A stretch of 64,000 bases of DNA from Bilabrum cf. latius (Eukaryota): assembly GCA_965178125.1 (NCBI GenBank), contig OZ237754.1, positions 620,001 to 684,000 of the forward strand. Reading direction: 5' to 3'. How positions within the stretch are numbered: position 1 is the first letter of the stretch; the number at the start of each line of letters is the position of its first letter. The position numbers were made by a program, and so were the translations under genes. Shown here piece after piece: positions 10,314 to 61,237 of this stretch. A model generated the notes under the pieces. That model was not told where the DNA came from. It did not search any database and saw only the letters and a list, made by a program, of their open reading frames with translations.

Positions 10314-13300
10314 TCAGTAAAGCCCTGCCCCGCCGGCTGCCGCACCGCCACCACCCTAGGAAGCCTAAATGTGCTGCGAGAGCAACAAAAATGCCTTCTA
10401 TGCTACAATCTGCTGCATGCTCTCCGGTACGTCAGCAATGGCTGCCATCATGCCAGCTCTATCATTGGCTCGCCCTCGCGCGAGAACCCGCTCGACGTGC
10501 TCCTGAATGGAGAGGGTAGGTGTTGATCCACTACCCGCTGCCTCCGCAGTCCCTTGTTGGTCTTGAGTCACGGAGTCCACCCCCGTGTCCTACTCGAAGC
10601 GAAGCCGTTCAGCGTCAAAACAAGGGGGGCACCCAGACGATGCCATCGAGGCATGCCACACCTCGGTTCGGTTCCTCGCCCTACACTGCTCCCGCAGTGA
10701 CGCCCCGCTAGGCAGACGAGCTACCGCAAAGTCAGACGCCACATCGCCCAGAGCGAACACGGGTTGCTCGTACAGTGACAGCGACGCGCCGGCATACCCT
10801 GTTTCTGGAGCAAGCGGAACACCAAATACGTCTGCAATCCTTGTTGATATACTCCCACTCTGCAGCCAAATCCCATGCCCTGCAAGGCTGGCTGCCGCCC
10901 CAGTGCGACCTGCTGCTGCTCCTGTTTGTCTTGCAAGTACCGTGTGGAGGCTCATCATTTCTGGAATAGGCTGGAAGCGTCTTCCCTCCAACGCCGCCAT
11001 GCCAGCCGTGGCGCCGCGTGCTGTAGCAACGTTGGCAGGTCTGGCAACCACGGCCTTGTGCGAATCGTATTGGTCCTTGCCAAGAACCGCGATCGCTTGG
11101 GCTTCCGTCAACGCCGTCACCCTGGAGGTGTCAATACAATGCACGCACTAGTGCTGCAGCACTACGCTCTCAGGCACGATGCACCAAGCCAGTGATAACT
11201 GACGCCCTGACGGCACGTCAGCTTCGTCCACATCGCGGAGCTTACCTTGACCTTTCAGCTGCTTAATCTTGGTGACCATCCTAGAGTGCGGACCTCCACC
11301 GTTCTCACGCATCAAGCGACCGATTCGCATCGTGCTGGGAGCTCCGACATAAGCAAGCTCTGCCGCTGCCGTTCCATCTACGTATCGCCGCTTATCCAAA
11401 CATGCCTCTGGTCCAAGTACAAGGGAAGGCACAATCAAGGGGCCAAGCATGATGATCTCCCTGCCAACGCCAGCTGCCTCTCTCAATGCGCACGAGGCCA
11501 CGACAAGCTGCTCGGATCTATCGGCGCGCACCGCATCTTTGACGCTACTGTACGCCACAGGACTCAAAGGGATAGCTGTGGCATACGCCTTGTGCTCACT
11601 CTGCTTCATCAATTCCGTATTTGATGTGTCAGGGTGCATCTCCAGCTAGCACCGCAATGCGTTTGGACTCTCTCGAATGTACTCCCGACTGGAACGAGTG
11701 CCCTTGCCGGCTACAGCTCGCACACCCGACTAGGTCATCGGGTACTCCTTTAAGATAGCATGCTTCTTCATCGCAAAAGCAACAGTGCGATACGAACTAC
11801 GGCAATTTAAACCCATGTGCAGGTTGGCTTCGGGCACTGCGTCAGGTCCCGTGCTTGGACAGGCCTTGCCAGCCAGTCGCAAGACACTCGCCTTGCCGGC
11901 CCTGGCACTCGCTGCGTCACGTGCGTCATCGTCTATCCGCGGCTCGAGGATGCGCCCAGGATCAACTAGGAAATCCAGCCTAGGTCGAGAGGCTTGCTTA
12001 GCGATGGCCTCGGCGCGGGCCTGAACCAGCCGGTTGGCAATCTCACGAGCTGCGACAAGACATCGGGCCCCCTTTTGCCTTGCGAGAGGGCTTGAAAAGG
12101 TGAGAATTTCCTACACAATCATGTTGGAGCCCTCCGAAATTGACCTCGGCTGCACGATAGCAGAGAGAGCGTGACCGATCTGATTGACCGCCTCGGTTAG
12201 CGTGGTACCATGGTCCGATACCCATTCGTCATTCTGTAGCGTCATGCCCAGCAGCGGCGACGCCAAGAGAGCCTGCTGCCTGTCCCGCTCCTTCTGATCG
12301 AACTGGTCGAGCATAGCAACGACAGGGTCACCGGTGCATCGAAGCGCGCGATTGAACGCCGCAGCTGCACCCTGTGTTGCATACTGGCGTGATGCACCCA
12401 TGCCGCCGCTCTTCTAGTACCAGTCCGCGACAGACTACGCCATATTTCGAGACGCGAGGATGGCCGAGCCTTTGATTTCCTCACGCAGCAAAGGAAGCAG
12501 ATCCAGGAGTCCGCTGCTTCTCGAAAGCATGGGGTTGTGCTCTGGGAACAGCGGCATCACCCCGAAGGCCGGTTTCGGGGGTGCCACCAAGGCCGATGCG
12601 CAGCGAGGGTCCTGTCGAATATGCTCTCTAATGAGGCCCATGGCAGCCTGCAGCGTGCTGTTTGGAGAACCGACCAATTGGACTGGATCGGTGACTGGTA
12701 CGGCGGAGTCCTCTGCTGTACTCGAGGCCTGGGCACCAGCAACATCACCGCCAGAGGCACCAGCCTGATCGACTCGCTCATAGACGACCATGTAGCTGCG
12801 CCTGGCCCCAGTCTGACCCTCTGCATCGCGCACAACTTTCTCCCAAGGAACCCCGGGAGTAACATTTTCGTCGTTATACTTGACCCAGGTTGAGTCTTCC
12901 TCCCTGGCATCTGCCCGTGAAAGCCCCCCGAGACGAGCGTAGGCATAGTAATGGCCAGCCATGTATGTCGGACCATCGTGAATGACCACTGCGCGCACTC
13001 TGTACACGAGCCGCGCGTGTGCACGGTACGCCTGAAGTACCTTTCTGCACAGGGCTTCTTCCTGAGCGTCTCCCTCGCGACTGCCTGACTGCAGGGCAGC
13101 AACAGTCTCTCGAAGAATTTTCTCCTCTGCCACAACTTCCATGCTCCTTTTCAGGACTTGGGACTGCTGCATGCTGTCCATCGAGTCTAGCTGCTCCATT
13201 GCCAAACTCAGCGTCATAATCTCATCTTGGATTGCTCCTAGTGATTGCTGAGCGGTCTGCAGCTCTTTCCTTTTCGCTACAGTCTTACTCGTGGCCCGAT

Positions 13301-16300
13301 GCACCGCCAATGCTCGCTGCGCGGTCCGGACGGCATCTCGCCCATCATCAGACCACAAACCCGCTCTGCCTGAAGGGACCGCGCTCGCTCCAGCCCCTGA
13401 TGCAGCTTGGGTAGCATCATGATGCGCGCTGCTATTGCCACTGCCACTGCCTTCACTACCGCCAGTGTACTTGGTACACTCGCGACGATATTCATCAGTG
13501 GGAGCTACAAAGTCATCCATGAAGATCTCGTAGTCGAGCTGCACCCTCTTCGAGAGCGACTCGGGAGCCTGCCTACCCAGCACCATGGTGAGTGTCGGTG
13601 GCAGGCTCACTATGGACCGATATTGGACAACCCGCGGAGTGCAGATCTATGAAAGAGATAGGGTCGCGCCTTCGATACGTCCGTCTCGAACAGCCGTAAG
13701 TGCTGCTTCAAGGGATCGGTGCGTTGTTGCCCCTTCAGTCGAGCGAATAGCGTCGACTGCAGCACCAACCACGTCGCTGTCAGATAAGGTCCGCCTCATT
13801 TCGCTCAAATCCATGCCTTCGTCTGACGCGAGGTCCTGGTAAATGCCGCTGTACACGCTCGCGGCAATCTGCTAAAATCGACGCGTGAGACCATACCCTG
13901 GCGGCGGCGTACGTTCCTCAGCGTCGCTGCTTGATACACCGGCGCTTGCCGTAGGATGCACCCCTGAATCATCACCAGCAGCAGCACCAGTACTGCCACG
14001 TGCAGCAGCACCCCCGCTGGATTTTGCATTGCCATCACCCGGCTCAGAGGATTCCCCGCTGTCGGCTGCAAGTTTCCACGGAGCTTCCTCCCCAGAGTGA
14101 GAGCCTGCGAGCGCCACGACCAGCCAGGGCCAATCCTGCACAGATCGCACGTGGCCTACCTAAAATTTGTCCACCTCGCGCGCCGGATCCCAGTCCCCGT
14201 CCGGGTCGGCCCACCGCGCCGTGCCTCTCGGCTGCACGGATACAGCGCTAGCAAGGACGGTGGCCTTGGGCAGCACGGTCCCATCAGGCAAGGTGACATC
14301 TCGGGCGAGAGCCACGCTCTGCATCATCGTCTCCACGTCGTTTCGGAGCTCTAGCCGCCTATGCGCGAGCTGTGAATGCGTCAGGCTGTTATCGGTCGAA
14401 CTCTGCTAGGACCCAGCAGCGGTAGCGGCAGCTGCATCGGTTCCAGCGGCACCACTGCTTCTGTCGCCAGGAGACCCTTTCTTTCCTCGCACACCCTCAG
14501 CGTCAACCCGCTCGAAGCCGCGCATCGCGTACTCGATCACCTCCAACACAAACCGCTGGAACTCGCCCGCATCGGACTGTTGCAGGTACGTCGGTGGGGT
14601 CGTTGCCGCAGTCGTCAACATGGTTTTCTGCTTCATGTGGCGCTCGTTTAGATCTTGAGCCATCAAGCCGAACCCAATGGTACCACCAGCGTTCAGCAGA
14701 TCGTCGCGGGTGGGCATGCCATGCACGAAGCCGTCGTCGTCATCCTCATCTGACTCCTCCTCATCCACGCCCAGACCACTGTCAGCTGCATCGCCACCCA
14801 TTTTCCAAGCCACAAGGGGGCGCCAGTGTCTGTAGCGCAATGTGTTTCTCGCTATGGGGTCCTCAGGGAGCGATGCGGCAGCGGGGCCAGCAGCGACAGC
14901 AGCAGCACCACCGCTTGAGCTGCCCTGCTCGACTTCAACGGCCACCACGCTTCCATCCCGGGTCAGGTCCAGCTTGTTTGAAATGGATGAATGCCCTTCC
15001 ACTGCAAGCGCTTCTTGCCACTCCACTGAACCAGGCACCATGACCTCGCCGAGATGAGAGCTGAAGTCGACACCGGCCGACGGAAAGCGCCGCATGTTAC
15101 CACCAGCACCCCCGCCAGCAGGCCCGCCGGCCTCGTCCTCTTCTCCAGCAAGGGACTGGACCTCAGCGTCAGAAATCCACGACGTCGCACTCGTGGCAGA
15201 CTTTGTTGACGACTCACGCTTCACCACGGCGGGGGCCAGGATACTGGCTGCACCGAAGTCTCCGAGGCCTGGCAAGTCCGTTCCGTCGGATGGGCTGCGA
15301 TTGGGTTTCAAAGGTGGCGTCGACACTGGAATCCTGCCATCTCCATCTGCAGCCCCTGCTTCCGAAGACCGCTGCAGCACGCCCACTCGCGCCCTGGCTA
15401 CGCCATCCGTAGGAGGCACCGGGGGCGAGCCAGCCTGGGCGTTTGGAGCGACCGCAACCCCAAGGCTGTTCTCTCTGGAGAGCAGGATGGGCGTCTGGGC
15501 CTCGCTCCGGTCCCTCAGCAAGCCACCGCCAGCAGGACCCCTCATCGTCCTGTGCTCCCGCACGATCTTCGCCCGCTCCGACTGCTGCGCCCTGCGCCTG
15601 GCCTGCCTCGCTGCAGCGATGGCCTAGCGCGGAGCGTCGTTGCTGAATGTGTCGAAGCTGTCAATCTTGTTCAGGTTACCAGCGCTCACAGCAGCCAGTG
15701 CCACGATCACGTCGGACGGCAGCTGCGTCTTCCTCGGACCGTACAGCATGAGCCCGAACAGCTTTCGCAGCTCCCACAGGACCGAAGCAGCCCGCAGGTA
15801 GTCCCTGGCCAACCGCCGGCCCCACGGACCCCTCCCTTCGTCCACGGCTGCCTCTTTGGCTCTCTGGACGTCGTCTGTGAGATTTGCCTCGGAGCTCAGC
15901 ACGAGCTCGCGAATGCTTCGAGTGTGGAGCATCGCAACCAGGGCGGCGTTGGCGTAGCAGGTGTTGCCGACATTTGCCAGTCCGACAAGGTCTGCTGATT
16001 GCCGAGACTAGTTGTATCCGCACGAATTCTTGCGGGATGCATCGATCTGGACCGATGCAGTGCCCTGCACCTTGGCCTTGAGTGCCCTTTCCTCGTCCCC
16101 ATCGGGTTGCTCCCTGTGCGCGCTGATGGCCTCCTGGTACGCCTTCTCTCCAGCGGCGATGACGCGGGCGATGGCACGGGCGCGGTACCTCTTTGTGATG
16201 GCACCCGTGGCTGGCAGAACCAGGGACAGGGAGGATGCCTGCCTGTCGAGTCCTGTGCTTCTAGCAGTGCCAGCAGTGTCCCTAGGACTCAGCGAGTCCT

Positions 16301-18188
16301 CCAGTTCGGCCGAGAGGGCCTTGTGCAGGTCATTGTCTATGAAGAGACCCTTCGCGGTGCCCCCTGCATACTCCCAGGCGCGGTTCCGAAGCTCCAGCTC
16401 AGTCTTTGCGTGCACTCTCAGCTGTTGCTGGCCTGCCCTGTCCTGCCGGAGCACCTGGGCACAGAACAGAAAGCACCCGAACCGAGCGGCTCCTGGCATG
16501 TACTTGACCAAGTCAGGCGAGCTGTATTGCGTCGCATCCCCCGACAACATTTGCATCATCATTTCCTCCCTATGCTACCGAATCGCGATCTCGTATTTGA
16601 CATTGTCGCCGATGACCTGCGCCGCCTCCCCCAGCACTCCCTCCAGGCCGCCTCCTAGCACGCGGTCCACGATGAGCGAGTTCATGGTCAGGGGGGAGGA
16701 CATCACGGGCATTCCGGATAATCCATCGAGCAGTTGGTCCTGAAATTCATCGGCATCAAGGTCATCAAGCAGTGGCAGCGCCTTTGCTTCCTCGTCCACA
16801 GCGGCATCCGTCATGCTCTGCAGCCTCACGGCCTGTTCAAGATGGAAGAGTCTTTGGCCCCGAGCGAACGCTAGCTTGTGGTCCAATGAGCCGAGTACTG
16901 CACGGGTATAGGCAGTCATCTCGGCTAGTCTCATGCGCCACATGCCACGTGTAGCGGGGTCTGTTGAGAGGTTGCCCGGGAGAGTGAGCACACTCACACC
17001 GTTGGGCAGCTTCTGCACCTTGCAGCCCCAGAGCGCTGCGTGTCGCAAGAGATCCGCCTTGTCCCAGGCATCCATGGTTTTCGTGCTTCCAACCGGATCG
17101 CACGCTGTGCCAGGACCGGTCCATGCCCCGCCCTCGAGCTCCCTTCGCACGATGGGATCCTCGTCGTCTCCCTCCAGACCGTACATCCTTGCCGACGCTC
17201 TGTGGATCTTGGCAACATCGCCCACCCAGGCGGCACCTTCTGGCTGCATCGCCGGCGACTGCATCCAACTTCGGCCAAACGCAAATCCACAGGAAGGCGC
17301 AGGCTCACTTGGGACGCTTGCAGCACCTCCCGTGGTAGCCGACGACCCAGGCGCGCCAGCACCAGCACCAGCAGCGCTCGAGGCAGCCCCGCTCTCGGCT
17401 GCGTGCACCCTCTCAGGCCGCGCGGGCGAGTACTTTCCATCGATGGAACCGTCTAGCTCTTCATGGATCCAAGGGCCTTGCCCTGGAGCGATGGCCTCGA
17501 GTGCCGCGTCCATCTCCAGCCGGATGCGGGCTGCACGGTCGTGCGCGAGGTCCGGGGCAGCTGCCGACTCGGGGCCGCTGCTTGCCGATGCGGCTGCGCT
17601 GCTGTTGGAGGTACTCGGTAAATCGTTTTCTGTGGCCTCGAGCCCGGCTGAAAGCAGGCACATGAGAAAGCGCAGGCGGTGCAGCATCGGGCTGTCCTTG
17701 CGGCTGCGCATCTGCGCGCAGATCTAGGACACCAGACCCGGCACCAGCAATGCGTGGACACTCCTTCCAACTCTTCCACTTGAAAATGTCATAGCAGCAG
17801 CACCAACGCCTGCTTTCTCGCCGAAGTCTGCAACCGGCTTGGATCGACTGATGCTTGCCAGCTAGAAGCGAGCATCACCGAGCTCTATCGCACTTCCTTG
17901 GCTCATGCTAGTCCCCTCTGCAGTCTGATTGGTATCTGAATATCCTTTTGATGTTATTTGACCCGTTTCAGACCGTGGGTTGAGGTCCTCTGCAATAATT
18001 GTGGGAAAAATTGGAGTGGCAAAAACAGGCGAAACAGTAGAATCTTCAAGCTGTGCGATAAGCGCGGTCATAAACGGACTTGGACTCACCTTGTAGCTGA
18101 AATGGCCCAGCTTCCATTCGCAGCCAGTACGCCCCGGAGGTGCTGTGCCCGGCAACTGCCCATCGTCCGCGGCCAGCTGCGCCACCAA
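10314..18188 (-). CDS. Very large ubiquitin-specific protease (USP/peptidase C19), about 2600 aa; 5' end uncertain
   Basis: One frame with no TAA/TGA from about 18190 to TGA 10314, containing 19 TAG. Cys box GLANVGNTCYANA (~15945-15985), QQSDAGEF (~14560-14585), SLPPTLTMVLGR (~13600), His box VVIHDGPTYMAGHYYAYAR and WVKYNDENV (~12860-13000). Confidence 0.85.
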
Positions 18189-29307: not shown

Positions 29308-29492
29308 TTTGGACAATATAACCGCATTTCCATTGCGTCGCCCCCGTTTTAATGTAACGAGCAAAATATAAATGCAGATATCTTGGGCGAGCTGCAACAG
29401 CCAAACGAACCAATAAAGGTTGCGCCTAGGTAACACATCGCTGTAATTGAGCGAAATTTACGGCTAAGGAATTGCTGTGAACCATCCTTTCG

Positions 29493-31152: not shown

Positions 31153-31748
31153 CGGGAGCGTGTAGCCTCGTGGTGCGAATGAAATCAAGAAATTTGCGTG
31201 TCATGCCATATTTTCTGGTTTCCAATTCGCTGCTTGTTGTACCGCTGAGGGTGAAAGCGGAAGCAACCACGAAGGTCATCACCGTAGCAGCGCTTGGGAC
31301 ATTATACCCGGTATGTACTGTCACAACGTAGGAGTAGCTTAAAGGTCATCAACTAGTTCAACATTCATGATCCCGTGGATGAATGCCGTACCCAATTCTA
31401 GCGCATGCCGCCAGAGATGCTCTCGGGTGCGGAGTCGGTGGAACCGCGGCCGGCGGGGGGACCAGCTGGTACGGTGGAGGCGAGCGGGGGAGGCGTGGCG
31501 GGACCGGGGCCTAGCGTTTCGAGCGGCCTGGCAGGGCCGTCCCATCGAGCTGTTGAAGCAAATGCGTTGTTCCTCATCTGACCATAATCCGCCTCCGGCA
31601 GCTGCCGTGCCCTGGCGAGGACTCGGGGCATTATCCGGGTGCGTCGTCGAGGGGGAAGCTGAGGTCGCGCATTGCTGCATGCTTGAGAGCAGTGCTGACG
31701 GAGGTCCCACACGTGAAGGCCACGATCAGCAGCTGTCCTCATCCCCAG

Positions 31749-33293
31749 TCAGTGCAACCTGCTCATGTGCCTCTTGAGATCGCCTGCCCGCCCGAAGCGC
31801 TTGCCGCACATACTGCACTCGTGATTGCGCTCCCCAAGATGCACAGTCCTCATGTGCGTCCTGACATCGCCTGCCCGCCCGAAGCGCTTGCCGCACACAC
31901 TGCACTCGTGATTGCGCTCCCCAAGATGCACAGTCCTCATGTGCGCTGTGAGACTGCCTGCCTCTCCGAAGCGCTTGCCGCACACACTGCACTCGTGATT
32001 GCGCTCCCCAAGATGCACAGTCCTCATGTGCTTCGCGAGATCACCTGCTTGCCCGAAGCGCTTGCCGCACACACTGCACTCGTGATTGCGCTCCCCATAA
32101 TGCACAGTCCGCATGTGCGTTCTGAGATGGCTTGCCTCCCCGAAGCGCCTGCCGCACACACTGCACTCGTGATTGCGCTCCCCAAGATGCACAGTCCTCA
32201 TGTGCGCTGTGAGACTGCCTGCATGCCCGAAGCGCTTGCTGCACACACTGCACTCGTGATTGCGCTCCCCAAGATGCACAGTCCTCATGTGCCTCGTGAG
32301 ATCGCCTGCATGCCCGAAGCGCTTGCCGCACATACTGCACTCGTGATTGCGCTCCCCAAGATGCACAGTCCTCATGTGCTTTGCGAGACTGCCTGCATGC
32401 CCGAAGCGCTTGCCGCACACACTGCACTCGTGATTGCGCTCCCCAAGATGCACAGTCCTCATATGCGTATTGAGATGGCTTGCCCGCCCAAAGCGCTTGC
32501 CGCACACACTGCACTCGTGATTGCGCTCCCCATAATGCACAGTCCTCATGTGCGTCCTGAGATTGCCTGCCAATTTGAAGAGCTTGCCGCACACACTGCA
32601 CTCGTGATTGCGTTCCCCACAATGAACAGTCCTCATGTGCGTCCTGAGATGGATTGCCTGCCCGAAGCGCTTGCCGCACACACTGCACTCGTGATTGCGC
32701 TCCCCATCATGCACAGTCCTCATGTGCGTCTTGAGACTGCCTGCCACCCCGAAGCGCTTGCCGCACACACTGCACTCGTGACTGCGTTCCCCCAAGTGCA
32801 CCACAGTCACATGCCGCATCAAGTTTCTCATCGAGCTCAGCACCTTCCCACACACCTCGCACTCATGCTAGCTCGCATCTGACCCTCCCTCTCTGCGCCG
32901 TCTCTTGGAAGCGACTGCACCGCCTCTCGAACGCACTGGTTCGCCAGCTTCTCGGCCCCTGGACCGCTTCCGCCCAAGCGATGCAGATGCAGATGCAGAC
33001 TCCCGCGCGCCCACTGCTGACATGGAGCCAGACAATGCCAACACTTCCTAGCTGCTGCCAGATGCCAAAGCTCCATTCGCGCCGCTTGACTCCTTGTCGG
33101 ATGCCGGCCCGTGCTACGAAGTACGCTGACTTCTTGCCTGCCCTCGGCTACCGGCATGCACTTGGCGCAATGGACGTGTACTTGTGGCAGCATCCTAGGA
33201 CCACGAGTCATCCAAGTCGCTTTCCATGTCACTACAGCTAGAGTCGCTCACGAGATCGATCACATCGGATGCTGCAGTACTACTCTGGGCCAT
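31749..33293 (-). CDS. C2H2 zinc-finger array protein, copy 1 (13 fingers, N-terminal SIM-like DVIDLVSDS)
   Basis: 29-aa/87-bp repeat HECSVCGKRFGxAGxLxxHMRTVHxGERN. Frame is open from ATG 33293 with TAG at 33195, 33114, 33048 and 32868. Stop is TGA at 31749. Confidence 0.9.
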
Positions 33294-34042
33294 TCCCAGC
33301 AATCCCACACACCGAGCTTCAAATGCCAGACAACGCCTTTGTGCCAATGTCGGATACACCTGAGTGACACTACTTGATGCAAGCCCCGCTGGTCCCGAGG
33401 CTGCTGGAGTATCGACCTGCTCTCAGGTCTCCCGCCAAGCAGCTCAACCCACACTGGCAGCAAGTCCACGGCGCCGATCGACCCTGGTCACTACAGATCT
33501 AGCACAGACTGCTTGCGAGAAATGCAGTCGTACAGAGGCGCCACGATCCGGTAGCAAAGTGAAACCATTATATCGTATCTCATGAAAGTGCTCGTCACGT
33601 ACCGGTTCAGCAGATTTGGCGCTCACCGGAGGTCACTCAAAATTATCGGCCTGTATACATCCAGATTGGGAGAAGCAGAGAGGAAGGGCACGACGGGTTT
33701 AACAAGTGGGGGGGGAAGTAGTGGAGGAGAAGATGATTGGTGGGATCCACGCACAAAGCCATCAACCCTCCTCCGTAGCAGCCGACATCCCACAAGCCAA
33801 CGAGCCCGCACACACTGATCCCCCAACAAACGCGGAGGCAGGGCCTGCCCTCCCCGCGCCCCCGCCCTCATGGTCGCTCGCCAGCTGCCGCCACGCCATC
33901 CCCAAGATGCGGTTCGCCAGCACCGGCACCGTGGACCCCTCCCCATTGCACTGATACGCGTTGTTCCTCATCTGACCAACATCCGGCAGCACCCGCACCG
34001 TGGACCTGTACCTCGGCTCCGCGGCCCGCCGGTCCATAGAGT

Positions 34043-34338
34043 CCAAGGCCATGGGCCGCTTCACCACGTCCTAGTACCCACGGTACAGCTGCATGTCAGG
34101 CTCGCGCTCCAAGGCCATGGGCCGCTTCACCACGTCCTAGTACCCACGGTACAGCTGCATGTCAGGCTCGCGCTCCAAGGCCATGGGCCGCTTCACCACG
34201 TCCTAGTACCCACGGTACAGCTGCATGTCAGGCTCGCGCTCCAAGGCCATGGGCCGCTTCACCACGTCCTAGTACCCACGGTACAGCTTCACCACGTCCT
34301 AGTACCCACGGTACAGCTGCATGTCAGGCTCGCGCTCC
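34043..34338. repeat. 66-bp tandem repeat (~4 copies plus partial) encoding EREPDMQLYRGY(Q)DVVKRPMAL on the minus strand
   Basis: Unit ccaaggccatgggccgcttcaccacgtcctagtacccacggtacagctgcatgtcaggctcgcgct starts at 34043, 34109, 34175 and 34241. Confidence 0.9.
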
Positions 34339-34493
34339 ATCAACCCCCGCACAAAAGATGCCCGGGCTCGTCCGTCTGCCTCCGAATCACGGACAGAGCC
34401 GCCTTCACCTAAGTCGCACACACCCGCGCGCCGCCGCAGCTCGACGGTGCCCGAGGGATGTCCTCCGCGTCGATGGCATCTGGCTCCTAGACC

Positions 34494-34760
34494 GGCTTGA
34501 CGTGGTCCTTGAGCTTCTGTCTGCGTGCCCTCTCCTCGTCTCTCTACTCTGGCTTGACGTGGTCCTTGAGTTTCTGTCTGCATGCCCTCTCCTCGTCTCT
34601 CTACTCTGGCTTGACGTGGTCCTTGAGCTTCTGTCTGCGTGCCCTCTCCTCGTCTCTCTAGTCCGGCTTGACGTGGTCCTTGAGCTTCTGTCTGCGTGCC
34701 CTCTCCTCATCTCTCTAGTCCGGCTTACCGTGGTCCTTGAGCTTCTGTCTGCGTGCCCTC
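34494..34760. repeat. 57-bp tandem repeat (~5 copies), (Q)RDEERARRQKLKDHVKP(D/E) on the minus strand
   Basis: Unit ggcttgacgtggtccttgagcttctgtctgcgtgccctctcctcgtctctcta... repeats with period 57. Confidence 0.9.
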
Positions 34761-34782
34761 TCCCAATCTCTTTCTCTTCCTG

Positions 34783-35238
34783 GGCTCTCCATGGCCTCCC
34801 TCTCGGCCTCCTCACGAGCCTTGCCCAGGTCCTCCTTCAGGCTCTCCATGGCCTCCCTCTCGGCCTCCTCACCAGCCTTGCCCAGGTCCTCCTTCAGGCT
34901 CTCCATGGCCTCCCTCTCGGCCTCCTCACCAGCCTTGCCCAGGTCCTCCTTCAGGCTCTCCATGGCCTCCCTCTCGGCCTCCTCACCAGCCTTGCCCAGG
35001 TCCTCCTTCAGGCTCTCCATGGCCTCCCTCTCGGCCTCCTCACGAGCCTTGCCCAGGTCCTCCTTCAGGCTCTCCATGGCCTCCCTCTCGGCCTCCTCAC
35101 CAGCCTTGCCCAGGTCCTCCTTCAGGCTCTCCATGGCCTCCCTCTCGGCCTCCTCACGAGCCTTGCCCAGGTCCTCCTTCAGGCTCTCCATGGCCTCCCT
35201 CTCGGCCTCCTCACCAGCCTTGCCCAGGTCCTCACCAG
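34783..35238. repeat. 57-bp tandem repeat (~8 copies), EEAEREAMESLKEDLGKA(G/R) on the minus strand
   Basis: Unit ggctctccatggcctccctctcggcctcctcac(c/g)agccttgcccaggtcctccttca; near-perfect copies. Confidence 0.95.
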
Positions 35239-35813
35239 CCGCCTCCGCGCTCAGAACCCGCACCAAGATCCTCTTCGTGGACCTGCCCACCTCCATCTCC
35301 TCCTCAGAGACCCCCTTGTCTGCCAGCCGCAGGAACTTGCCGTCCGTCTCCTGCTCGGCGTACGTCACCCTCGCCCTCTTCCTGGACCCGCGGCCCATCT
35401 CGTCCCTCCTCTGCTCCTCCATGCCAGCAAGATCCAGCTGGGCGTACCACCGGCACACTCACCCGGGGCACCCCTGTCTTGCCCAGCACGGCAGCAAGGC
35501 AGCAAGCAACATCACCTGGACGGATGTCCCAGCCTTGAGTGCCATGGTGAGCCAGCATGTCCTGCTGCATGGCCACGCAGGATGAAACGCACGCACGCCG
35601 ATCTATCCACCACCACAGGATCTCACCAGACAGCTGCAATACCGAGTCATGCATAGCGTGCGGCAGCTGCCGTGCCCTGGCGAGGACTCGGGGCATTGTC
35701 CGGATGCTGGGTCGAGGGGTAAGCTGAGGTCGCGCATAGCTGCGTGCACGAGAGCAGTGCTGTCAGAGGTCCTACACGTGCAGGCCACGATCAGCAACTG
35801 TCCTCATCACCAA

Positions 35814-36992
35814 TCAGTGCAACCTGCTCATGTGCTTCTTGAGACTGCCTGCCTCCCCGAAGCGCTTGCCGCACACACTGCACTCGTGATTGCGCTCCCC
35901 ATAATGCACAGTCCTCACGTGCTTTGTGAGATCGCCTGCATGCCCGAAGCGCTTGCCGCACACACTGCACTCGTGATTGCGCTCCCCATAATGCACAGTC
36001 CTCACGTGCTTTGTGAGATCGCCTGCCACCCCGAAGCGCTTGCCGCACACACTGCACTCGTGATTGCGCTCCCCATAATGCACAGTCCTCATGTGCTTTG
36101 TGAGATCGCCAGCCTGCCCGAAGCGCTTGCCGCACACACTGCACTCGTGATTGCGCTCCCCAAGATGCACAGTCCTCATGTGCGCTGTGAGACTGCCTGC
36201 CTGCCCGAAGCGCTTGCCGCACACACTGCACTCGTGATTGCGCTCCCCAAGATGCACAGTCCTCACGTGCCTCTTGAGATGGCTTGCCTCCCCGAAGCGC
36301 TTGCCGCACACACTGCACTCGTGATTGCGCTCCCCATAATGCACAGTCCTCATGTGCTTCTTGAGATGGCCTGCCTGCCCGAAGCGCTTGCCGCACACAC
36401 TGCACTCGTGATTGCGCTCCCCATAATGAACAGTCCTCATGTGCTTCTTGAGATTGCCTGCCACTCCGAAGCGCTTGCCGCACACACTGCACTCGTGATT
36501 GCGTTCCCCCAAGTGCACCACAGTCACATGCCGCATCAAGCTTCTCATCGAGCTCAGCACCTTCCCACACACCTCGCACTCATGCTGGCTCGCGTCTGGT
36601 CCTCCCTCTCTGCGCCGTCTCTTGGAAGCAACTGCACCGCCACTCGAACGCACTGGTTCGTCAACTTCTCGGCTCCTGGACCTCTTCCGCCCAAGCGATG
36701 CAGATGCAGATGCAGATGCAGACTCTCGCGCGCCCACTGCTGACATGGAGCCAGGCAATGCCAGCACTTCCTTGCTGCCGCCAGATCCCAAAGCTCCATT
36801 CGCGCCGCTTGACTCCTCGTCGGATGCTGGGCCGTGCTGTCTTCGGCTACCGGCATGCACTTGGCGTAATGGACGTGTACTTGTGGCAGCATCCTAGGAC
36901 CACGATCCATCCAAGTCGCTTTCCATGTCACTACAGCTAGAGTCGCTCACGAGATCGATCACATCGGATGCTGCAGTACTACTCTGGGCCAT
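35814..36992 (-). CDS. C2H2 zinc-finger array protein, copy 2 (9 fingers)
   Basis: Same 87-bp repeat as copy 1. ATG 36992 (MAQSSTAASDVIDLVSDS), one TAG at 36894, stop TGA at 35814. Confidence 0.9.
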
Positions 36993-37435
36993 TCCCAGCA
37001 ATCCCACACACCGAGCTTCAAATGCCAGACTGCGCCTTTGTGCCAATGTCGGATGCACCTGAGTGACACTACTTGATGCAAGCAACGCGGGGCCCGAGGC
37101 TGCTGGAGTATCCACCTGCTCTCAGGTCTTCCGCCAAGCAGCTCAACCCACACTGGCAGCAAGTCCACGGCGCCGATCGACCCTGGCCACTACAGATCTA
37201 GCACAGACTGCTTGCAATAAACGCAGTCGTACAGAGGCGCCACGATCAGGCAGCAAAGTGAAACCACCTTGGAGTATATTTCTGTATTCTCTCACATGAA
37301 AGTGCTCGTCACTATCCGGTTCAGCAGATTTGGCGCTCACCGGAAGTCGCTCGAAATTACAGAGAAGACACCGTTTCTCGTCATCGGCCTGTGCACACAT
37401 CTAGACCGACCGGAATGTTCTCCTTCTATCAATCA

Positions 37436-40400: not shown

Positions 40401-41047
40401 CACCATGTTTCATCGAGCAGGTCTGCCTTGCCATAGGCGCGTTCCAAGTGGACTGCTGTATGCTTTGCATTCAGACTATGGTTGACTTGCTTATTGTTGC
40501 TCTGGCTCTGTGGCCAACCGATGCAACCCATCCCGCCAGCGTTCGCGATGGTTAGGTTCGCCACGCTTACCTCAACCGGCATGGAGGCAAAGCATGGAAG
40601 CAGAGCGTACTAGCGGGCCTGTCCGACCAAGAAATCTTCAACTTCGCTCCCCTTGAACAAGAACAGCGGTGGGTAAGGGTAGTCTGTAATGTCGGTGACA
40701 AATCGGTTCTGCGCCCACTGAGGCCACACCCACACGGATGCATCTGGTATTGCTCTCGAGTCAATCCCAACCACAGATGATACTGAACCCCCTATGAGCA
40801 TTCCGACGATCACAGTAACGGCATGACATAGCAGCAGCCATGGGATCTACCCGCGTTTGGTCTATTCCCATACTCCTAGGCTTTCTTCAACGATCAAACT
40901 CTCCAGCGACGGGTTGGGATGCAAGGAACAGCATGTTCTTTGTCTAGAACAGCAACTCATGAGCGCTAGAATCCCATCAATGGTGATTAATAGTGGCCAC
41001 TTGCACTTGGAGCCCGGCTTGACGATGAGCCGTTGTAACGTGCACAT
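37436..41047 (-). CDS. Mucolipin/TRPML (polycystin-family) cation channel; 5' end uncertain
   Basis: Pore region LGVAIFGRYSLRFSS...LTLFAFMNGDAMRETF, S6 LYLVSFEFFLLYVALNSLVAIAEESF, S1 region IPWLLLCHAVTVIV. Continuous frame with TAG at 40862, 40847, 40610, 40070, 38411 and 37745; TGA at 37436. Confidence 0.8.
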
Positions 41048-41118
41048 TCGAGCGGTGGATTTTTGTGTTCTTCTCGGCGGAAGTTCAACTGCGCATTTAC
41101 AGGTCAGTAGGAGTTCAC

Positions 41119-43696
41119 ATGGCCGCCGAATTCAAGTCACAGGGAGGCGATGCAGCTAAGGCAGCTGATCCTACGATCTCTGCGTAGAACGCAGCCTAGG
41201 CCTTGAAGATGAAGGACCTTGGCAACAAGGCACTCAAGGAGAAGAAGTATGCTGAAGCCGACGCCATGTACACTGCTGGCATCAAGCTGGACCCCTCCAA
41301 CCATGCACTATTCTCTAACCGATCTGCTGCGCGCCTCATGGCCAAGAACGTGGATGGTGCAGTGGAAGATGCGAAGAAGTGCACTGAAATCGCACCGAAG
41401 TGGAGCAAGGGCTTCGGCCGTCTTGGTGAGTCCCATACACCTAGATTTTGCTGGCACGCATCCATGATACAATTTATTTTCAAATGGTTATTGTGTATAA
41501 TCAGTTTCGTCACGTTTTATGCTCTATGGCTCTGAGTCACTTGGTTCCCTCGGCGCGTTTGAATGTCCACTTCGGTTCGCAGGCGCCGCGTTGCTGCAGA
41601 AGAAAGATTTCACCGGGGCAATCCAGGCCTACTTGCAGGGACTCATGATCGACCCCACGAGCCCCGCTCTCACCCAGGGAATGTAGCGCGCTCAGCTCGC
41701 CGCCTCTGGCAAGGCTCCTCAGCCCAAGGCCAAGGCAGCCAGCGGCGGTGCGGGCGCCAAGCCCGCGGCAGCCACGTCGGGCGAAAGCGAAACCAAGAGC
41801 GAGGAGCCCACGGGCCCCAAGCTGGACACCTCTCCCGTCATCGGAATCGACCTCGGAACCACGTACAGCTGCGTGGGCGTGTGGAGGGGCGAGCGCGTGG
41901 AGATCCTCGCTGACCAGGAGGGCAACCGCACCACCCCATCCGTCGTTGCATACACCGAGGAGGGGCTCCGGCTCGTGGGCCGGGCTGCGGTGGCACAGGC
42001 GGCGCGCAACGCCAGGAACACGGTGTATGACGCCAAGCGTCTCATCGGCGGGCGCATGTCTGACTCCGCCGTGGAGGCAGACGTGGAGCGGTTCCCGTAC
42101 GAGGTGAAGGCAGGCAAGGACGACCGTCCCGTGATCCACGTGCAGCACGGGGGCAAGGACCTGTCCATGGCCCCCGAGGAGGTGTCTGCCGCAGTGCTGA
42201 CCCACATGAAGGGAATCGCGGAGGCGCAGCTGGGCCACGAGGTCAAGCGAGCCGTCATCACCGTACCCGCTTACTTCAACGACGCCCAGAGGCACGCCAC
42301 GAAGGCGGCCGGCGCCATCGCCGGGCTGGACGTGCTTAGGATCATCAACGAGCCCACTGCGGCTGCCCTGGCCTACGGGCTGGATTTCAAGGCCAAGGAG
42401 GACGAGAAAGCCGAGGAGGACGGGCCGTCCTCCGGCGCGGGCGACGCCGACAAGCCCGCCTCTAGGAGCGTGCTCATCTTCGACCTGGGCGGAGGCACCT
42501 TCGACGTGTCGCTGCTGCAGATCGAGGACGGCATCTTCGAGGTCAAGGGCACCCACGGCGATACCCATCTCGGCGGCGAGGACTTCGACAACAACCTCGT
42601 CGATTTCGTGCTGGCGGCCATCAAGCGCTCCCACGGGAAGGACCTCAAGGGTGACATGCGCGCCAGCAAGCGCGTGCGCGCCAGCTGCGAGCGCGCGAAG
42701 CGCACCCTGTCCACCCAGGACAAGGTGACCATCGTGGCGGAGGGCGTGCTCGACGGCGAGGACGCGGAGGTGACTGTGAGCCGCGCCAAGTTCGAGGCCC
42801 TGAACATCGAGCCGTTCCAGAGGTGCCTCGACACCGTCAAGCGGGTCATGGTAGAGGCCAAGGCTGACCCCGAGGACGTCATGGACGTGGTGCTTGTGGG
42901 TGGCTCGACAAGGATCCCCAAGGTGCAGGAGATGCTCAGGGAGTTCTTCGGCGGCAAAGAGCTCTGCAAGAGCATCAACCCCGATGAGGCCGTGGCCTAC
43001 GGTGCCGCCGTGCAGGGCGCCATCCTGAGCGGCCAGAGGCACAGCGCCACTGAGAGCCTCCTTCTGGTGGACGTGGTGCCCCTGTCTCTGGGCATCGAGC
43101 TCACCGGGCAGATCTTCTCGGCCATCATCAAGCGCAACACGGCCATCCCCGCCAGCGCCTCCAAGACGTACACCACGGAGGAGGACTTCCAGGACGCCAT
43201 CGACGTCAAGGTGTTCGAGGGCGAGCGCAAGTCTACCACTGGCAACAACCTGATCGGCGAGTTCGAGATCTCCGGCATCCAGCGCGCCAAGCGAGGCGTG
43301 CCCCAGATCGCGGTGACCTTCAACGTTGACGCCAACGGAATCCTCAACGTGCGCGCGTACGACAAGACCACCATGGCAGAGGCTAGCATCACCATCACGA
43401 ACGCCAGGGGCAGGAGACCCGCCGAGGAGATCGAGAGGATGGTGGCGGATGCTGAGAGGATGAAGGCCGCCGACGAGATGAGGGCAGCTGCGGTGGAGGC
43501 CCGCTCCGAGCTGCTCGCGCTGTGCGACGACACGATGGAGATGGCCGAGGGACGGCACGACAAGGAACTCAAGGAAGCGACCGAGAACGTGGAGGCGTGG
43601 GCCCGCAGCGCCGGGCTCAGGTCCAGCATCTTGGAGATCCAGGCCAAGCGCAGCTTCCTCATGGAGAAGCTGGACAAGTCCATGCGCGGCAAGTAA
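41119..43696 (+). CDS. TPR domain (STI1/HOP TPR1-like) fused to Hsp70
   Basis: ATG 41119; TAG at 41185, 41197 and 41684; intron 41426-41582. [12 protein letters not shown]...LFSNRSAA...[12 protein letters not shown]. Hsp70 signatures [49 protein letters not shown]. Stop is TAA at 43694. Confidence 0.92.
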
Positions 43697-53869: not shown

Positions 53870-54115
53870 ATAACTTCATTCGATTTCTCACGCTGGCGTT
53901 AGTCAATGAGGATTTTCGCTGCCCAACCGGCCGCCGGCGGCCGGTTCTAACCAACCGGCGGTGCAATGCATTCAAATATAATTCCCCCAGCATGTGCTGA
54001 ATGTATGCGGCAGATTGGCAAACGATTTTCACAGCGAAACCTAGTGTGTAGATCACTGACATTGCGCGCGTTCTCACGCACAAGGGCGATTAATTTGAAG
54101 AGAAATTTCAGAAGC

Positions 54116-57100
54116 ATGACTGAATCCCAGCCTCGCGTATATCGCGTTGCAATCACCGGAGGGCCTGCGGGCGGCAAGACCACGTGTTTCAGTGCACTAC
54201 AATCTGCACTGGAGGATGCTGGTGCATCTGTTTTCCGCGTTCCCGAGGGAGCGACGCTGATGCACGAAGGTGGGATGCGATGGGACGGCGTCGACACGTA
54301 GGCTGCGCTTCGAGCCTAGCTAAGCATCACGTCGTCGCAAGCCTCTCTGGAGGAATGCTTTCACCGGCTTGCGAGAGAGCGCGCGCGGATTTCGAACCGA
54401 CCTGCCGTGGTTTTGTCGGATAGAGGCCTGCAGGACGGAAGGGCATACTTGCCCGAAGAGTCTGCTCTAGAACGGCATCGATAGCAGGCCGAGGAGCGAG
54501 GGCAGTCATGGGAAGATGTTATGAATAGCTGGCTCGGTCCTCCCCCGCATGGGCACGGAAGCACGGCGGCATCGATCGCTGAGTCCTCAGCGGGTCTCGG
54601 GCCTGGCTCTCGCTCCATCCCCGCCCGGGGATCTGCCACCAGCCTTGCATCCATCGCCAGCACCACGTCGCTGGCATCCCAAGCTGGAGGAGCCGCATCC
54701 CACAACCCGCTGCAGACGTCTCTGTGGAATGCGATCCTAGAGAGATGCGCCGGGGCCGCCATCGACCGCGCGGCCATCAGCGCTCCCTCCGGGGTGACGA
54801 GTGCTGAGGATCCGGACGCCCCATCGGCCGGCCACGCCCAGGCCCAGCCCGCCTCTCTGCTGAGCGAGCGAGAGGTCAGGGATGCTCGGTACGACTGCGT
54901 GGTTCACCTGGTCACGGCTGCGGACGGCGCTGCGGAGTTTTACTCCACTGCCAACAACGCGGCAAGGCACGAGGACGCAGACGAGGCGCGCGCGGTGGAC
55001 CTGCGGATCAGGCAGGTGTGGCTCGGGTCACCCAACTTCGTGGTGGTGCACAACCCAAGGGGGAGCAGCAGGCAGCGCAGTGCGATGCAGGCCGGGGACC
55101 TCACGGCCGACCCTGGCGACCAGCCGGGCGGGGAACTGTCCGAGCAGATGCAGCAGACCGGCGCGCAGCAATTCCAGACGAAGCTGCGACGGGCAGTGGC
55201 CGCCGTCTGCCGTGCCTGCAACGTGGCCAGAGAGGAAGGGGGCTCGAAGCGGTTCTGGCTCAGCGGGGTCACGATGGGTAGGGCCTGGCAGCAGGCGCTC
55301 GCCGCACCCAAACCGGAAGAGGGTGCCGCAGCTGGTTCCGCAGACGCCCTGGAACGGCTTTGTTCCTCCCTTGGCTGCTCCACGGTACGTGCGTTCGTCA
55401 TTGTGCACACGTACGTGGAGGCACAGGACACAATCGAGGCAGCCAGCGGGGCGGAGGCGGGTATGGTGGGTGCTGCTGCCACGCTGGACAGGCGGCTCGA
55501 GGAACAGGCGGCGAGGGCGGGGCTTGGTGAACAAGGGGTCGATGTCGCAACGGGGGGTAGCACTAGGCCCACCCCCCTCAGGACAACTGTTCCTCTGGGG
55601 ACTGGGTGGTCCCTGGACGGCCTGGAGGGGAGGCCCTCTGCCGCTGCTGTGGATGCGACTGTGGGGGTCGCAGTGGAGGCAGGGGCCGGAGCAGTGCCAG
55701 CTGCAGGGGGGCAGGCCGGGTCACGAGGTGCTGGCTAGAGCTCTACTGCGGATGGCAGCGCGGGAGTGTCATTGTCAGTCGATGACGAAGGCATGGGCGG
55801 TCCTTTCGAGTACGAGTACAGGTGGGTGGTCGCTCGGCGGGTGCGGGTGTCTGCCAGGACAGAGGTGCCTCCCGCCGTGCTACTGGGTCTGGCCGCCAGG
55901 GATGAAGAAAGGAGGTCGCGGAGAACTAGCAGCAAGGCTGCTACGGCCGAGGAACAGGGCGGGGGTGTTGACACGGATATCGGTGCGGGTGCGGGTGCGG
56001 GTGTTTAGGAGCCGCGCCGGGGAACAAAGGTGTCCTCGGCGCACCAGGCCGCCGATAGGGTCCTCCGGAGCGCGCACGCCATGTCCATGGGTGCAGGCGC
56101 GAGCGACTGGTGGGTGGAGGAACACGAGGACGAGGAGGCGGAAGGAGGCAGCGGGGAGCGGGACGCTGAGAGCGAGTTCGGGCCGGGGGCGGGTTGGGGC
56201 GGGGCCAAGCCCTGGGGACCCTCCCGGGGGCACCTGTACGTCTGGAGGGAACACGCGTACAGGCAGTTGCAGGGACGCAGGAGGAGGAGGGGGGCTGCTG
56301 GCGGGGAGGGCGCTGCCGCTCCGGGCACGAGCGGCCCCCCCCCCGGTGCTTGGAGCGAGTGGCACCCGGCCTGGCTGGACCCAGCGTCTGAGAGGGAGCA
56401 GCAGCGGATCACGTCGCAGCGAGAGTACTTTCAGCTCGTGCGGATGGCAGACCGCAGGGAACAAATGCAGGTGCAGCTGGCACAGGCTGCAGCGGCGGGG
56501 CATGGGCATGGGCAGGGTGCCGCTGCAGCAGAGGGTTAGGCCGGCGGCGGCGGCGCCCCGTCGAGTGCAATCCCCAGCCCGGTAGGCGCAGTGGTGAAAG
56601 CTCGGCTGCTGTTCGAGACCGGCGCAGGCAGTGGAGACGCTGCTGCTGGGGGCTCCGGGGAGGACGACAAGAAGGCAGGCGCTGCAGGTGCCTCGGTGGG
56701 AACGAGGCGTGTGCTGGAATGGGACGAGGTGTTCTGGGGGAGGAGGGAGGTGGCGCTGGAGGCGGGGGAGAGGGGGCCCTTGGCCGCTGCTGCGAGGGCC
56801 TCTGTGCTGGCGGTGAGGTCGGGCACGAGGGAGGAGGAGAAGGAAGCGGAGTTTCCGGACAGCGGCGAGGATCCCGCGGGCGGGGATGGTGTCGGCCACC
56901 TGGGCCTGGGCCTGGGGCTTCCTCTGGGTCGGTTCGCCTCTGTGGAGTCGGAGCGAAGCACCGGTGCTGCGGACGAGAGCGCCATAGCGGCGGGTCTCGG
57001 ACTCGACATCGAAAGGGCGGGCCCGTCCCCCACGGAGGGGGACAAGACCCCCCCTCGCACAGGGGTCGGGGTTGCCCCCAGTGCGGGTATACCCAGGGAC

Positions 57101-57445
57101 CTGAGCGGGATCCCCATGTCTCCTGCGGTGCGATCCACGTCTATCCCCGCTCCCGGAAGCCCCCCTTTGCCGTCCTCTGGGGACCCCGGGGCGGTGGAGA
57201 GCGCCGGCCAGTGGACGCAGGCGCACGACGGCAGAGGCGAGGCGGGGTCGGGTCGTTCCTCCCCCGTCCCCATGTCGGGGTCAGCGGGGCGGGTTCCTTC
57301 CTGGCTGCCTGCCGTGCTGCAGCCGCAGAGCGAGGTAACCGGGGATCCTCGTTGGCTCAGCGAGGCGCTCGCAGGCGTGGATGTGGCCTCGATCGAGCCG
57401 CGCGGGGCCATCACTGTGGTGGCAGGCAGCGGAGCTGTGAAGTGA
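54116..57445 (+). CDS. TTD14/NadR-type P-loop (AAA_28) protein with a CYTH-like C-terminal part and large insertions
   Basis: Motifs VYRVAITGGPAGGKTT, VFRVPEGAT, VVLSDRGLQDGRAY, RYDCVVHLVTAADGAAEFYSTANNAARHE, EVTGDP. TAG at 54299, 54317, 54482, 55736, 56006 and 56537; TGA at 57443. Confidence 0.85.
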
Positions 57446-59447: not shown

Positions 59448-61237
59448 TCACCTTCCTCCCCCAAGGCTGGGGTAGGCCCCATACGTGCCAGCCCCGCTAG
59501 CAGTCGGTGCACCATACGGTGGTGCGCCACCAGCCCCCCCTCCGTACACGCTCGAGCCGTACCCAGGAGGACCTGTGCCTGTTTGGCCACCCGAGGAGTA
59601 CCCAGGAGGACCCCCCGCCCTGCCACCTCCGCCATAGACAGGTGGCCCCTGACCCGCCGATGGCTGGCCCCTCCAGGCCCCCGGTGAGCCCCACTGGCCC
59701 GGCCCGGCCGAGGCACCGACCACTCCCGCGCCGCCTGTGCCGAACCCATGGGTGGCACCTGAGTTGTATCCAGGAGGACCCCCGCCGCTTTGTCCACCTG
59801 ACGAGTATCCGGGAGGAGCCCGGCCAGTTTGACCACCTGACGAATAGCCCGGAGGTCCTTGCCTTGTGGCAGGGCCCACCCCCGCCCCCGCCCCCGAGCC
59901 AGTGCCACTCCCGGACCCGCCGCCGGTGCGGCTGCCGCTGCCGGTCGCCGCTGAGGGCCCCGCACCACCCGCCGCTGGCGATGCCCAGCCAGCGCCGCTC
60001 GCCCCCGCGCCCCTGCCACCACCCCTGCCCCTGGCCGCCCCCATGGCCTTGGAAATGCGACCCACGAGCACCTTAGCCTCGAACTGCTTCTTCGCCCGAC
60101 GCCTCGCTTCGAAGGCGTACTCTGGCGCAGATATGCTGCCCTGCTCCAGAGCCTGCCGCAGGGCCTCCAAAACGTCCTCTGTTCCCTCAACGTGGGAGTG
60201 CAGCCGAAGCAGCTATGCTTGCAGGGGGCTCCCAGCCACCAGATCGGCATCCACGTCAAGCTCTTTGGCAGGAAGTGCAGCGGCCCTGGCTGCCTAGGCC
60301 TCCATGGCCGTCTCCAGACGAACTGCGTCCACCTGCATCTGCTAGTTTCTGGATTCTACCGCCCGCATGCGCCCCTCCAACTCCTGCATGTCCCTCACCC
60401 TGCGTTGTTCCCTGGCCTTGAGGTCGTCTTGCACCTTCTGCATGGATGTGATTTCTGCTATGAGACGGCGGGCCACACGGGTGAAGGCGTTCCGCAGCGC
60501 GGTGTTGGCGTTCTGACGGATGGCGGCTACACCAGAGGCGGCGCCGCCTGCAGCTGTACCAGTGCTGTGGCTTGCGACCGTGCTTGGCTGGCTCGGGCCG
60601 CTGCTTCCGTAGCCTGCACCGGAACCAAAGCTGGGCTGTGGCATCGGGGCTGCCCTGGCTTGCACCGGGGATTGCTGGCTGAAGCACGACTGCATGCTCT
60701 TGATACAGTCCTTGAGATTTGATCCTGGCTGCCACGTTTGCAAATACGGGATCTTGATGTTGCAGTCGGTGTCGACGAAGCGATGGCCTGGCGTAACCTG
60801 CATTTTCGTCGTGGGCCGCACATATCCTATCGGAGCCGTGATTGGATATCGTAGGGGCACGTACACTTCAACTGGAATATAATATTTAGAGCCCCTGTGC
60901 TAAATTTCAATGGTTCCGCCTAGTTTCAGCAGCTTCTCTGCACCCCACTGATCCGTCGAGGGGTCCAGCTGGTGGATGAGCTCGTCCGTGCTAGGTGCCA
61001 AGTACGGAGAAGCCTCTAGCGCCAAATCAACGTGCGATCGTGTGGTACCACTGTCCTGCGCAGCCAAATTGAAGTGCGAAGCAAAGTTGAGGGTCACTGC
61101 GAAGACTTGAGTTGGAGCCGCGCTTAAGAACAGCTTCGGCTTGGAGCACACGAGGGTCAGTGGCTCACAGCATACGGCAAACCGGATATAATTCGAACAG
61201 CTTCAGCCTTTCGCTACGGGAGATCTGGACGAGACAT
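59448..61237 (-). CDS. TSG101: ESCRT-I subunit Tsg101/Vps23 (UEV, coiled coil, SB domain) with a Gly/Pro/Tyr-rich C-terminal extension
   Basis: UEV motif LLKLGGTIEI(Q)HRGSKYYIPVEVYVPLRYPITAPIGYVRPT...IPYLQTW. SB box SPLQA(Q)LLRL...EDVLEALRQALEQGSI...RRRAKKQF. Intron 61056-61168; TAGs include 60900, 60342 and 60213; TGA at 59448. Confidence 0.88.

Follow-up and report, generated by a model that had tools for sequence, protein, structure and literature searches.

In-frame TAG is a sense codon, most probably for glutamine, in a GC-rich stretch of eukaryotic DNA

Introduction

Genetic codes in which UAG and UAA differ in meaning are rare; two reports (PMC11687900, PMC5304391) place them in a handful of lineages. 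Reassignment of UAG alone to glutamine, with UAA kept as a stop, is described in the same two reports for Iotanema spirale, Protocruzia tuzeti, Hartmannula sinica and Trochilia petrani, and reassignment of UAG to leucine for the rhizarian exLh and for uncultivated phyllopharyngean ciliates. Codes in which both codons (UAR) specify glutamine are reported for many ciliates, ulvophytes, Hexamita, Streblomastix and the aphelid Amoeboaphelidium protococcarum (PMC11687900, PMC5304391 and PMC6299283). The present study concerns a DNA stretch of 64,000 nucleotides from Bilabrum cf. latius (assembly GCA_965178125.1, contig OZ237754.1, positions 620,001 to 684,000, forward strand; hereafter the window), whose long protein-coding genes are interrupted by in-frame TAG codons. 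Among these genes are two zinc-finger paralogues, ZNF1 and ZNF2, on which an original prediction, made from the letters of the window, had based the proposal that TAG is equivalent to the glutamine codon CAG. Our analysis covers this pair, the other long reading frames of the window, contigs from public sequencing runs, and homologous proteins. We consider it highly likely that the window stems from the nuclear genome of a gene-dense, intron-poor and GC-rich (G+C about 61%) eukaryote in which TAG is a sense codon, most probably for glutamine, while TGA is the main stop and TAA also stops translation.

Results

TAG is the only stop triplet found inside long reading frames

TAG is a sense codon in the window. 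Across its 18 long open reading frames (ORFs), which range from 219 to 2585 codons and add up to 16,425 codons, TAG occurs in frame 80 times and TAA or TGA not once; 17 of the ORFs include at least one TAG. The longest stop-to-stop ORF, of 1106 codons in the standard code, grows to 2625 once TAG is freed but remains unchanged if TAA or TGA is freed instead. With TAG freed, the summed length of ORFs of at least 300 codons climbs from 18,474 to 34,828. The largest frame, that of a USP-type ubiquitin hydrolase (Table 1), has a chance probability of 5e-24 of remaining open; in this and the similar estimate below, the rate used is the off-frame frequency of TGA plus TAA measured inside the genes of the window.

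The frames match familiar eukaryotic protein families: KAP3 (2e-94), Hsp70 (2e-210), UCH, WD40, PhyH, DUF3712/Tag1, PKD channel, AAA_28, Vps23/UEV, PAN and His_Phos_2. TAGs fall within or between the Pfam domains of the KAP, UCH, AAA_28, PAN_4, Vps23_core and DUF3712 proteins and of the UEV. Three more in-frame TAGs lie beyond the ORF limits, two in the first exon of the Hsp70 gene (41185 and 41197) and one in the UEV part of the Vps23 gene.

TAA and TGA remain terminators

TAA and TGA keep their role as terminators in the window. Sixteen of the 18 ORFs end with TGA and two with TAA, endings that follow by construction from having set the ORF ends with TAG as sense. When these genes are read in their other two frames, TAA and TAG occur 70 and 195 times, respectively, versus 0 and 80 times in frame. 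Freeing TAA in addition to TAG extends the longest ORF merely from 2625 to 2635 codons and merges no genes. Finally, the TAA that closes the Hsp70 gene coincides in the alignment with the end of 13 of 14 homologues, and the 25 codons separating this TAA from the next TGA are without counterpart in the homologues. The absence of in-frame TAA, the lack of merging and the position of the Hsp70 terminator together indicate that the change affects UAG only, a code that we take to be NCBI table 15. A UAR-to-glutamine code (table 6 type) was rejected on the grounds that in-frame TAA is absent, against 80 TAGs, and that two genes end at TAA.

TAG codons persist in spliced Hsp70 contigs

Eight public runs from four studies contain positions 31500-37300 or part of them, and four of these runs (X1, X6, X7 and X8) were compared with the window over 31500-44000. 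The data consist of contigs, in which transcript ends and levels are not visible; none of X6, X7 and X8 is recorded as RNA, and their RNA nature is our guess. Contigs of these three runs, which stem from two studies, join position 41424 to 41582 over a 157-nucleotide (nt) GT..AG intron in a gene for a TPR-Hsp70 fusion. X1 does not display the joint, but it has almost no cover over the intron. Of the three joints listed for the 12.5 kilobases (kb) compared, no other is of the GT..AG type. The start proposed by the ORF finder (41519) falls inside the intron; the spliced frame, which opens with ATG 41119, specifies three TPR repeats and then a full Hsp70. Its product aligns over the full length with 14 TPR-Hsp70 fusion homologues drawn from at least 120 matches, the best named full-length relatives among the matches listed being oomycete proteins with 50-53% identity.

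The in-frame TAGs of this gene (41185, 41197 and 41684) lie downstream of the start codon and ahead of the ATPase domain. The segment 41582-42992, which includes the third TAG, is covered by spliced contigs with no differences in X6, X7 and X8, and the two TAGs of the first exon are covered by X6 and X7 contigs starting at 41109 and 41151. The codons are thus present, unedited, in the mature message. With UAG in frame in the message, read-through is required for the encoded proteins to be made; under the standard code the TPR-Hsp70 product ends after 22 residues. A 3392-nt contig of X6 is likewise collinear with the PKD-channel ORF and its TAGs, an observation of little weight as X6 may contain DNA.

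Two features of the contigs concern ZNF1. At position 32870, the first letter of the TAG that precedes finger 1, X7 has the same letter as the window at a depth of 20.3. Thus, as far as contigs tell, ZNF1 is not the untranscribed copy whose finding the original prediction had said would speak against it. In X6, one contig (67 of a depth of 195) reads CAG at this codon. Being without the other nearby differences specific to ZNF2, this contig represents an additional copy, an allele or a variant of another strain. Some intergenic bins (e.g., 33585-34001 and 36921-37337) are not covered by X7 and X8, from which no inference is drawn.

Relatives and homologues have mostly glutamine at TAG positions

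The identity of the amino acid was approached through proteins aligned with the TAG-containing genes. Among these are public fragments from relatives (P0123, P0135, P0136, P0138, P0140 and P0141) that run from the first methionine after a TAG to the next TAG. Evidently, these relatives were gene-called under the standard code; their proteins are ORF fragments that are TAG-free for this reason and show only what replaces TAG. Relatives of the USP were collected by a HMMER search with residues 1201-2400, which gave 20 proteins at E-values up to 0.001, the best nine of which were aligned. A word-index search with the full-length USP among shorter proteins matched one fragment, and a scan of JGI metagenomes with the C-terminal 441 residues gave 32 pattern matches, none of which was confirmed.

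The relative of the AAA_28 protein (P0123, 96% identical) has Q, Q and L at TAG 111, 117 and 171. For the USP, P0135 (78% identical) has Q at TAG 2308, and P0136 (70% identical) has Q, Q and D at TAG 1987, 2114 and 2142, making Q the residue at three of the four sites spanned by close relatives. Over all proteins with 70-96% identity, Q is found at five of seven sites, L and D at one each, and E or K at none. This preponderance of Q is as expected for silent exchanges between TAG and CAG or CAA. More distant proteins add conserved positions to the list: P0137 (36% identical to the USP) has Q at 2114, where the motif YPMT-Q is conserved, and K at 2142; in AAA_28 homologues, the column corresponding to TAG 117 has Q in eight of ten and E in two; and the TAG of the Vps23 core is opposite a Q of human TSG101. 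The clean TAG/CAG difference between the zinc-finger genes (see below) and the CAG contig of X6 fit the same assignment. Judging from these alignments, glutamine is most probably the amino acid inserted at TAG. Pyrrolysine and selenocysteine were dropped as candidates, the aligned residues being Q.

The ends of the fragments are informative as well. P0141, P0138, P0140 and P0135 end at the residue just before TAG 1304, 1987, 2114 and 2494 of the USP, respectively, so that these sites are occupied by a standard stop codon in the genomes of the relatives too. TAG positions are common to at least three diverged relatives. As the fragments stop at the very positions of TAG in the window, the trait is common to a clade, with members at about 96%, 80%, 70% and perhaps 36-40% protein identity.

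The zinc-finger pair yields one certain TAG/CAG difference

ZNF1 and ZNF2 are ordinary, recently duplicated C2H2 genes with TAG codons in their N-terminal parts, which are acidic and serine-rich and include a basic KRRRRE stretch. Pfam recognizes zf-C2H2 with E-values of 2.7e-76 and 3.7e-54, and the pattern C-x2-C-x12-H-x3-H is counted 13 times in ZNF1 and nine times in ZNF2; the intact 13-finger array proposed for the first copy is thus borne out by motif count and Pfam alike. The four TAGs of ZNF1 are all within its first 142 codons. The codons and coordinates that the original prediction listed for the pair are all correct when read on the minus strand, and the alignments uphold both the TAG said to be common to the two copies (codon 33) and the pairing of codon 82 with AAG.

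The central claim, a TAG/CAG exchange occurring twice, holds once for certain. The TAG at codon 142, which precedes the first Cys of finger 1 by two codons, differs from its CAG counterpart by one base in an otherwise matching context. The second pair, TAG codon 60 versus CAG 36837-36839, abuts a 24-nt insertion-deletion and depends on the alignment chosen: the T of TAG lies within the gap in the nucleotide alignment, and the whole codon does so in the protein alignment.

Nor can the pair by itself establish synonymy. The copies are 94.5% identical over the 236 nt upstream of the ATG, 94.7% over the N-terminal coding part and 86% over the 189 nt after the stop. The coding part shows nine silent and 13 replacement codon differences, distributed as 10, 6 and 10 over the three codon positions. 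As the 5′ flank has diverged as much as the coding sequence, no constraint is visible, and therefore the TAG/CAG difference is not demonstrably synonymous from the pair alone. The ZNF1 frame upstream of finger 1 is open except for TAG, a result with a chance probability of about 0.05 for 144 codons and weak when taken alone. On its own, then, the pair would provide weak evidence for reassignment; the equation of TAG with CAG made in the original prediction is supported, mostly by the evidence from outside the pair.

The backbones of the fingers (ZNF1 array, Table 1; ZNF2 array, 35817-36578, minus strand) are near-identical (HECSVCGKRFG..A..L..HMRTVH.GERN), with differences clustering in the helix that separates the Cys pair from the His pair. 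These arrays may be likened to the fast-evolving, minisatellite-like arrays of the PRDM9 or KZFP type, with which they share the 29-residue period, the near-identical backbones and a finger number that differs between copies (13 versus 9). They differ in that Pfam gives zinc-finger families only, with no KRAB, SET or SCAN domain.

One X8 contig placed on ZNF2 has six differences, between 36594 and 36674; the one that was checked, at 36594, converts ZNF2 to the ZNF1 state. Gene conversion, cross-placement or an additional copy in that organism may account for this. A putative tandem-repeat gene (33762-35422, minus strand), with five copies of a unit ending in KP(D/E/V)-TAG, occupies the interval separating the zinc-finger genes. 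It is overlapped in another frame by a TAG-bearing repeat ORF (33762-34583), over a tandem repeat at approximately 34040-34330.

A second paralogue pair under constraint

A divergently oriented pair of genes for coiled-coil, PAN-domain proteins provides a second internal control. Their differences number 104, 102 and 198 at the three codon positions, which points to coding constraint. Four TAGs, internal ones included, are common to both copies. The unshared TAGs are opposite GAG, AAA, TCA and AAC, never CAG, and all are in fast-diverging segments. Hence, the excess of CAG opposite TAG that the original prediction had expected genome-wide is absent across the two paralogue pairs of the window. 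In the PAN genes, long identical stretches alternate with short segments of high divergence, a mosaic suggestive of gene conversion.

Other features of the window

The UEV domain of the Vps23/TSG101-like gene extends over 133 codons upstream of the first ATG without a start codon, and the TAG in this part is the fourth in frame. The lack of a start codon in this extension makes an additional exon upstream likely. The coordinates of this and the other features are given in Table 1.

Table 1. Coordinates of the genes, codons and other features considered in this study (positions are those of the window).
Feature	Position	Strand	Description
USP-type ubiquitin hydrolase ORF	10314..18071	minus	2585 codons; 19 in-frame TAGs, no TAA or TGA
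tRNA-Asp(GTC)	24305-24377	plus	just downstream of the WD40-repeat gene; sole Rfam match in the whole window
ZNF1, C2H2 zinc-finger gene	31749..33293	minus	ATG 33293 to TGA 31749; 514 codons with TAG as sense
ZNF1 finger array	31752..32861	minus	13 tandem C2H2 fingers; TAG-free; 29-residue period; motif count and Pfam zf-C2H2, zf-H2C2_2
ZNF1 TAG codon 142	32868-32870	minus	opposite CAG 36585-36587 in ZNF2
ZNF1 TAG codon 82	33048-33050	minus	opposite AAG 36771-36773 in ZNF2
ZNF1 TAG codon 60	33114-33116	minus	at the 3′ edge of a 24-nt stretch that ZNF2 lacks
ZNF1 TAG codon 33	33195-33197	minus	also in ZNF2 (codon 33, 36894-36896; alignment)
ZNF2, C2H2 paralogue of ZNF1	35814..36992	minus	ATG 36992 to TGA 35814; 392 codons, 1 in-frame TAG
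TPR-Hsp70 gene	41119..43696	plus	exon 1 41119-41424; intron 41425-41581; exon 2 41582-43696; ends with TAA
Coiled-coil and PAN-domain gene, first of divergent pair	46565-49906	minus	second internal control
Coiled-coil and PAN-domain gene, second of divergent pair	50474-53869	plus	second internal control
AAA_28 P-loop protein ORF	53966..57445	plus	6 in-frame TAGs; Pfam
Vps23/TSG101-like gene	59448..61202	minus	Pfam; UEV domain extends upstream of the first ATG across TAG 60900-60902

Discussion

By analogy with other UAG reassignments, UAG would be read here by a tRNA-Gln with anticodon CUA, and the release factor eRF1 would no longer recognise UAG. A tRNA of this kind is argued, in PMC11687900, to read UAG and not UAA. 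The TAG/CAG difference next to finger 1 of the zinc-finger genes would then be a silent Gln/Gln difference between copies.

Several observations weigh against assigning glutamine to TAG. Neither of the expected components is encoded in the window: its only tRNA, the tRNA-Asp(GTC), does not have the CUA anticodon, and eRF1 is not among its 18 genes. The residues replacing TAG are not uniform. Two of the seven close-relative sites have L or D; distant USP fragments have D, A, A, G, E and K at poorly aligned TAG sites; and in distant alignments the TAG of KAP3 is opposite T and that of the UEV opposite P. Moreover, the fragments of relatives are an ascertained sample, as ORFs called under the standard code cannot include TAG. 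Across the two paralogue pairs, CAG is opposite one, or at most two, of six or seven unshared TAGs, the other codons being AAG, GAG, AAA, TCA and AAC, once each. Both PAN genes end in ...TTG TAG TGA, and the construction of the ORFs, which makes them end at TGA or TAA, would keep a TAG terminator hidden in some genes. Finally, X6 is flagged as probably DNA, and all runs are available as contigs rather than raw reads.

Could these observations be better accommodated by another reading of TAG? One is that the codon specifies a different amino acid (leucine, glutamate or lysine) and that the matches to Q are coincidental. The L at TAG 171 of the AAA_28 protein, the hydrophobic contexts of several TAGs (MLxILALL at the start of the His_Phos_2 protein, LSxICT in the USP), the E present in two of ten AAA_28 homologues and the GAG, AAG and AAA codons opposite TAG in the paralogue pairs would all agree with it. 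Against them stand the five Q among seven close-relative sites, compared with one L, one D and no E or K, and the conserved columns, which are Q in eight of ten AAA_28 homologues, in YPMT-Q and in TSG101; we regard a different amino acid as quite unlikely. A context-dependent code, with TAG meaning glutamine within genes and also terminating some of them, as in Condylostoma or karyorelict ciliates, is unlikely too. It would draw on the TAG TGA ends of both PAN paralogues, on the three TAGs in the last 28 codons of the USP, and on the way in which ORF ends were defined, which would conceal such a terminator. Yet no gene of the window requires a TAG terminator, the Hsp70 C-terminus, the only one compared with homologues, ends at TAA, and the four TAGs conserved between the PAN paralogues include internal ones.

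Most improbable in our judgement is the standard code, under which ZNF1 would be a decaying duplicate or the TAGs would be intronic or edited to CAG in RNA. The zinc-finger genes lend this idea some substance: ZNF1 has four TAGs versus one in ZNF2, the coding parts diverge as fast as the flanks, and one X6 contig has CAG at 32870. Introns, besides, do exist in this genome. What contradicts it is the pattern in the window at large, where frames are broken by TAG only (80 TAGs versus no TAA or TGA in 16,425 codons, 17 genes being affected) and where spliced Hsp70 contigs of three runs keep TAG unedited, with no differences. The Hsp70 intron is the only GT..AG joint listed in 12.5 kb, X7 has the letter of the window at 32870, and one zinc-finger TAG is common to both copies. 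On the strength of the TAG-only interruptions, the unedited spliced contigs and the shared zinc-finger TAG, the pseudogene, intron and editing explanations were rejected.

With glutamine as the preferred assignment, the practical consequence is that a standard-code annotation disrupts all but one of the 18 genes of the window. Public proteins of the clade are already fragments cut at TAG, and the genome and its relatives need re-annotation with TAG as glutamine. At a more general level, codes that split UAG from UAA inform how changes in release factor and tRNA uncouple the two codons.

A nuclear code with UAG alone reassigned to glutamine is a known but rare kind of variant. No nuclear UAG reassignment in stramenopiles or thraustochytrids was found among the publications listed by literature searches, as judged by titles and abstracts. 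Tentatively, the window might represent an unreported independent origin of the UAG-only code, in a GC-rich, intron-poor, non-ciliate clade, or else a published report of UAA and UAG as glutamine might be too broad; we hold this to be possible, though doubtful. If the lineage has already been reported as reading both codons as glutamine, the report is too broad, since UAA terminates here. In the reports cited above, the only aerobic non-ciliate with TAG as glutamine is an aphelid, for which a UAR code is given; were the window to belong to that lineage, the published assignment of both TAG and TAA would be at odds with it.

Comparison with the described systems places the window closest in kind to the lineages with a UAG-only glutamine code: TAGs occur in conserved genes and opposite glutamine, and TAA is not sense and still terminates. 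It departs from them in its main stop, which is TGA (16 of 18 ORFs), whereas PMC11687900 gives UAA as the preferred stop of phyllopharyngeans. It differs also in belonging to a GC-rich genome that is not obviously that of a ciliate or a fornicate, and in encoding an oxygen-dependent PhyH enzyme and a TPR-Hsp70 fusion. With the UAR-glutamine codes, that of A. protococcarum included, the window shares TAG as glutamine in a non-ciliate eukaryote and the presence of the trait in several diverged relatives or copies; unlike them, it never has TAA in frame, and TAA ends two of its 18 genes, one of these ends being confirmed by the C-termini of homologues. Lastly, the systems in which UAG specifies leucine resemble the window in limiting the reassignment to UAG and retaining UAA as a stop. 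They differ from it in the amino acid, the close-relative sites of the window having five Q versus one L and its conserved columns being Q.

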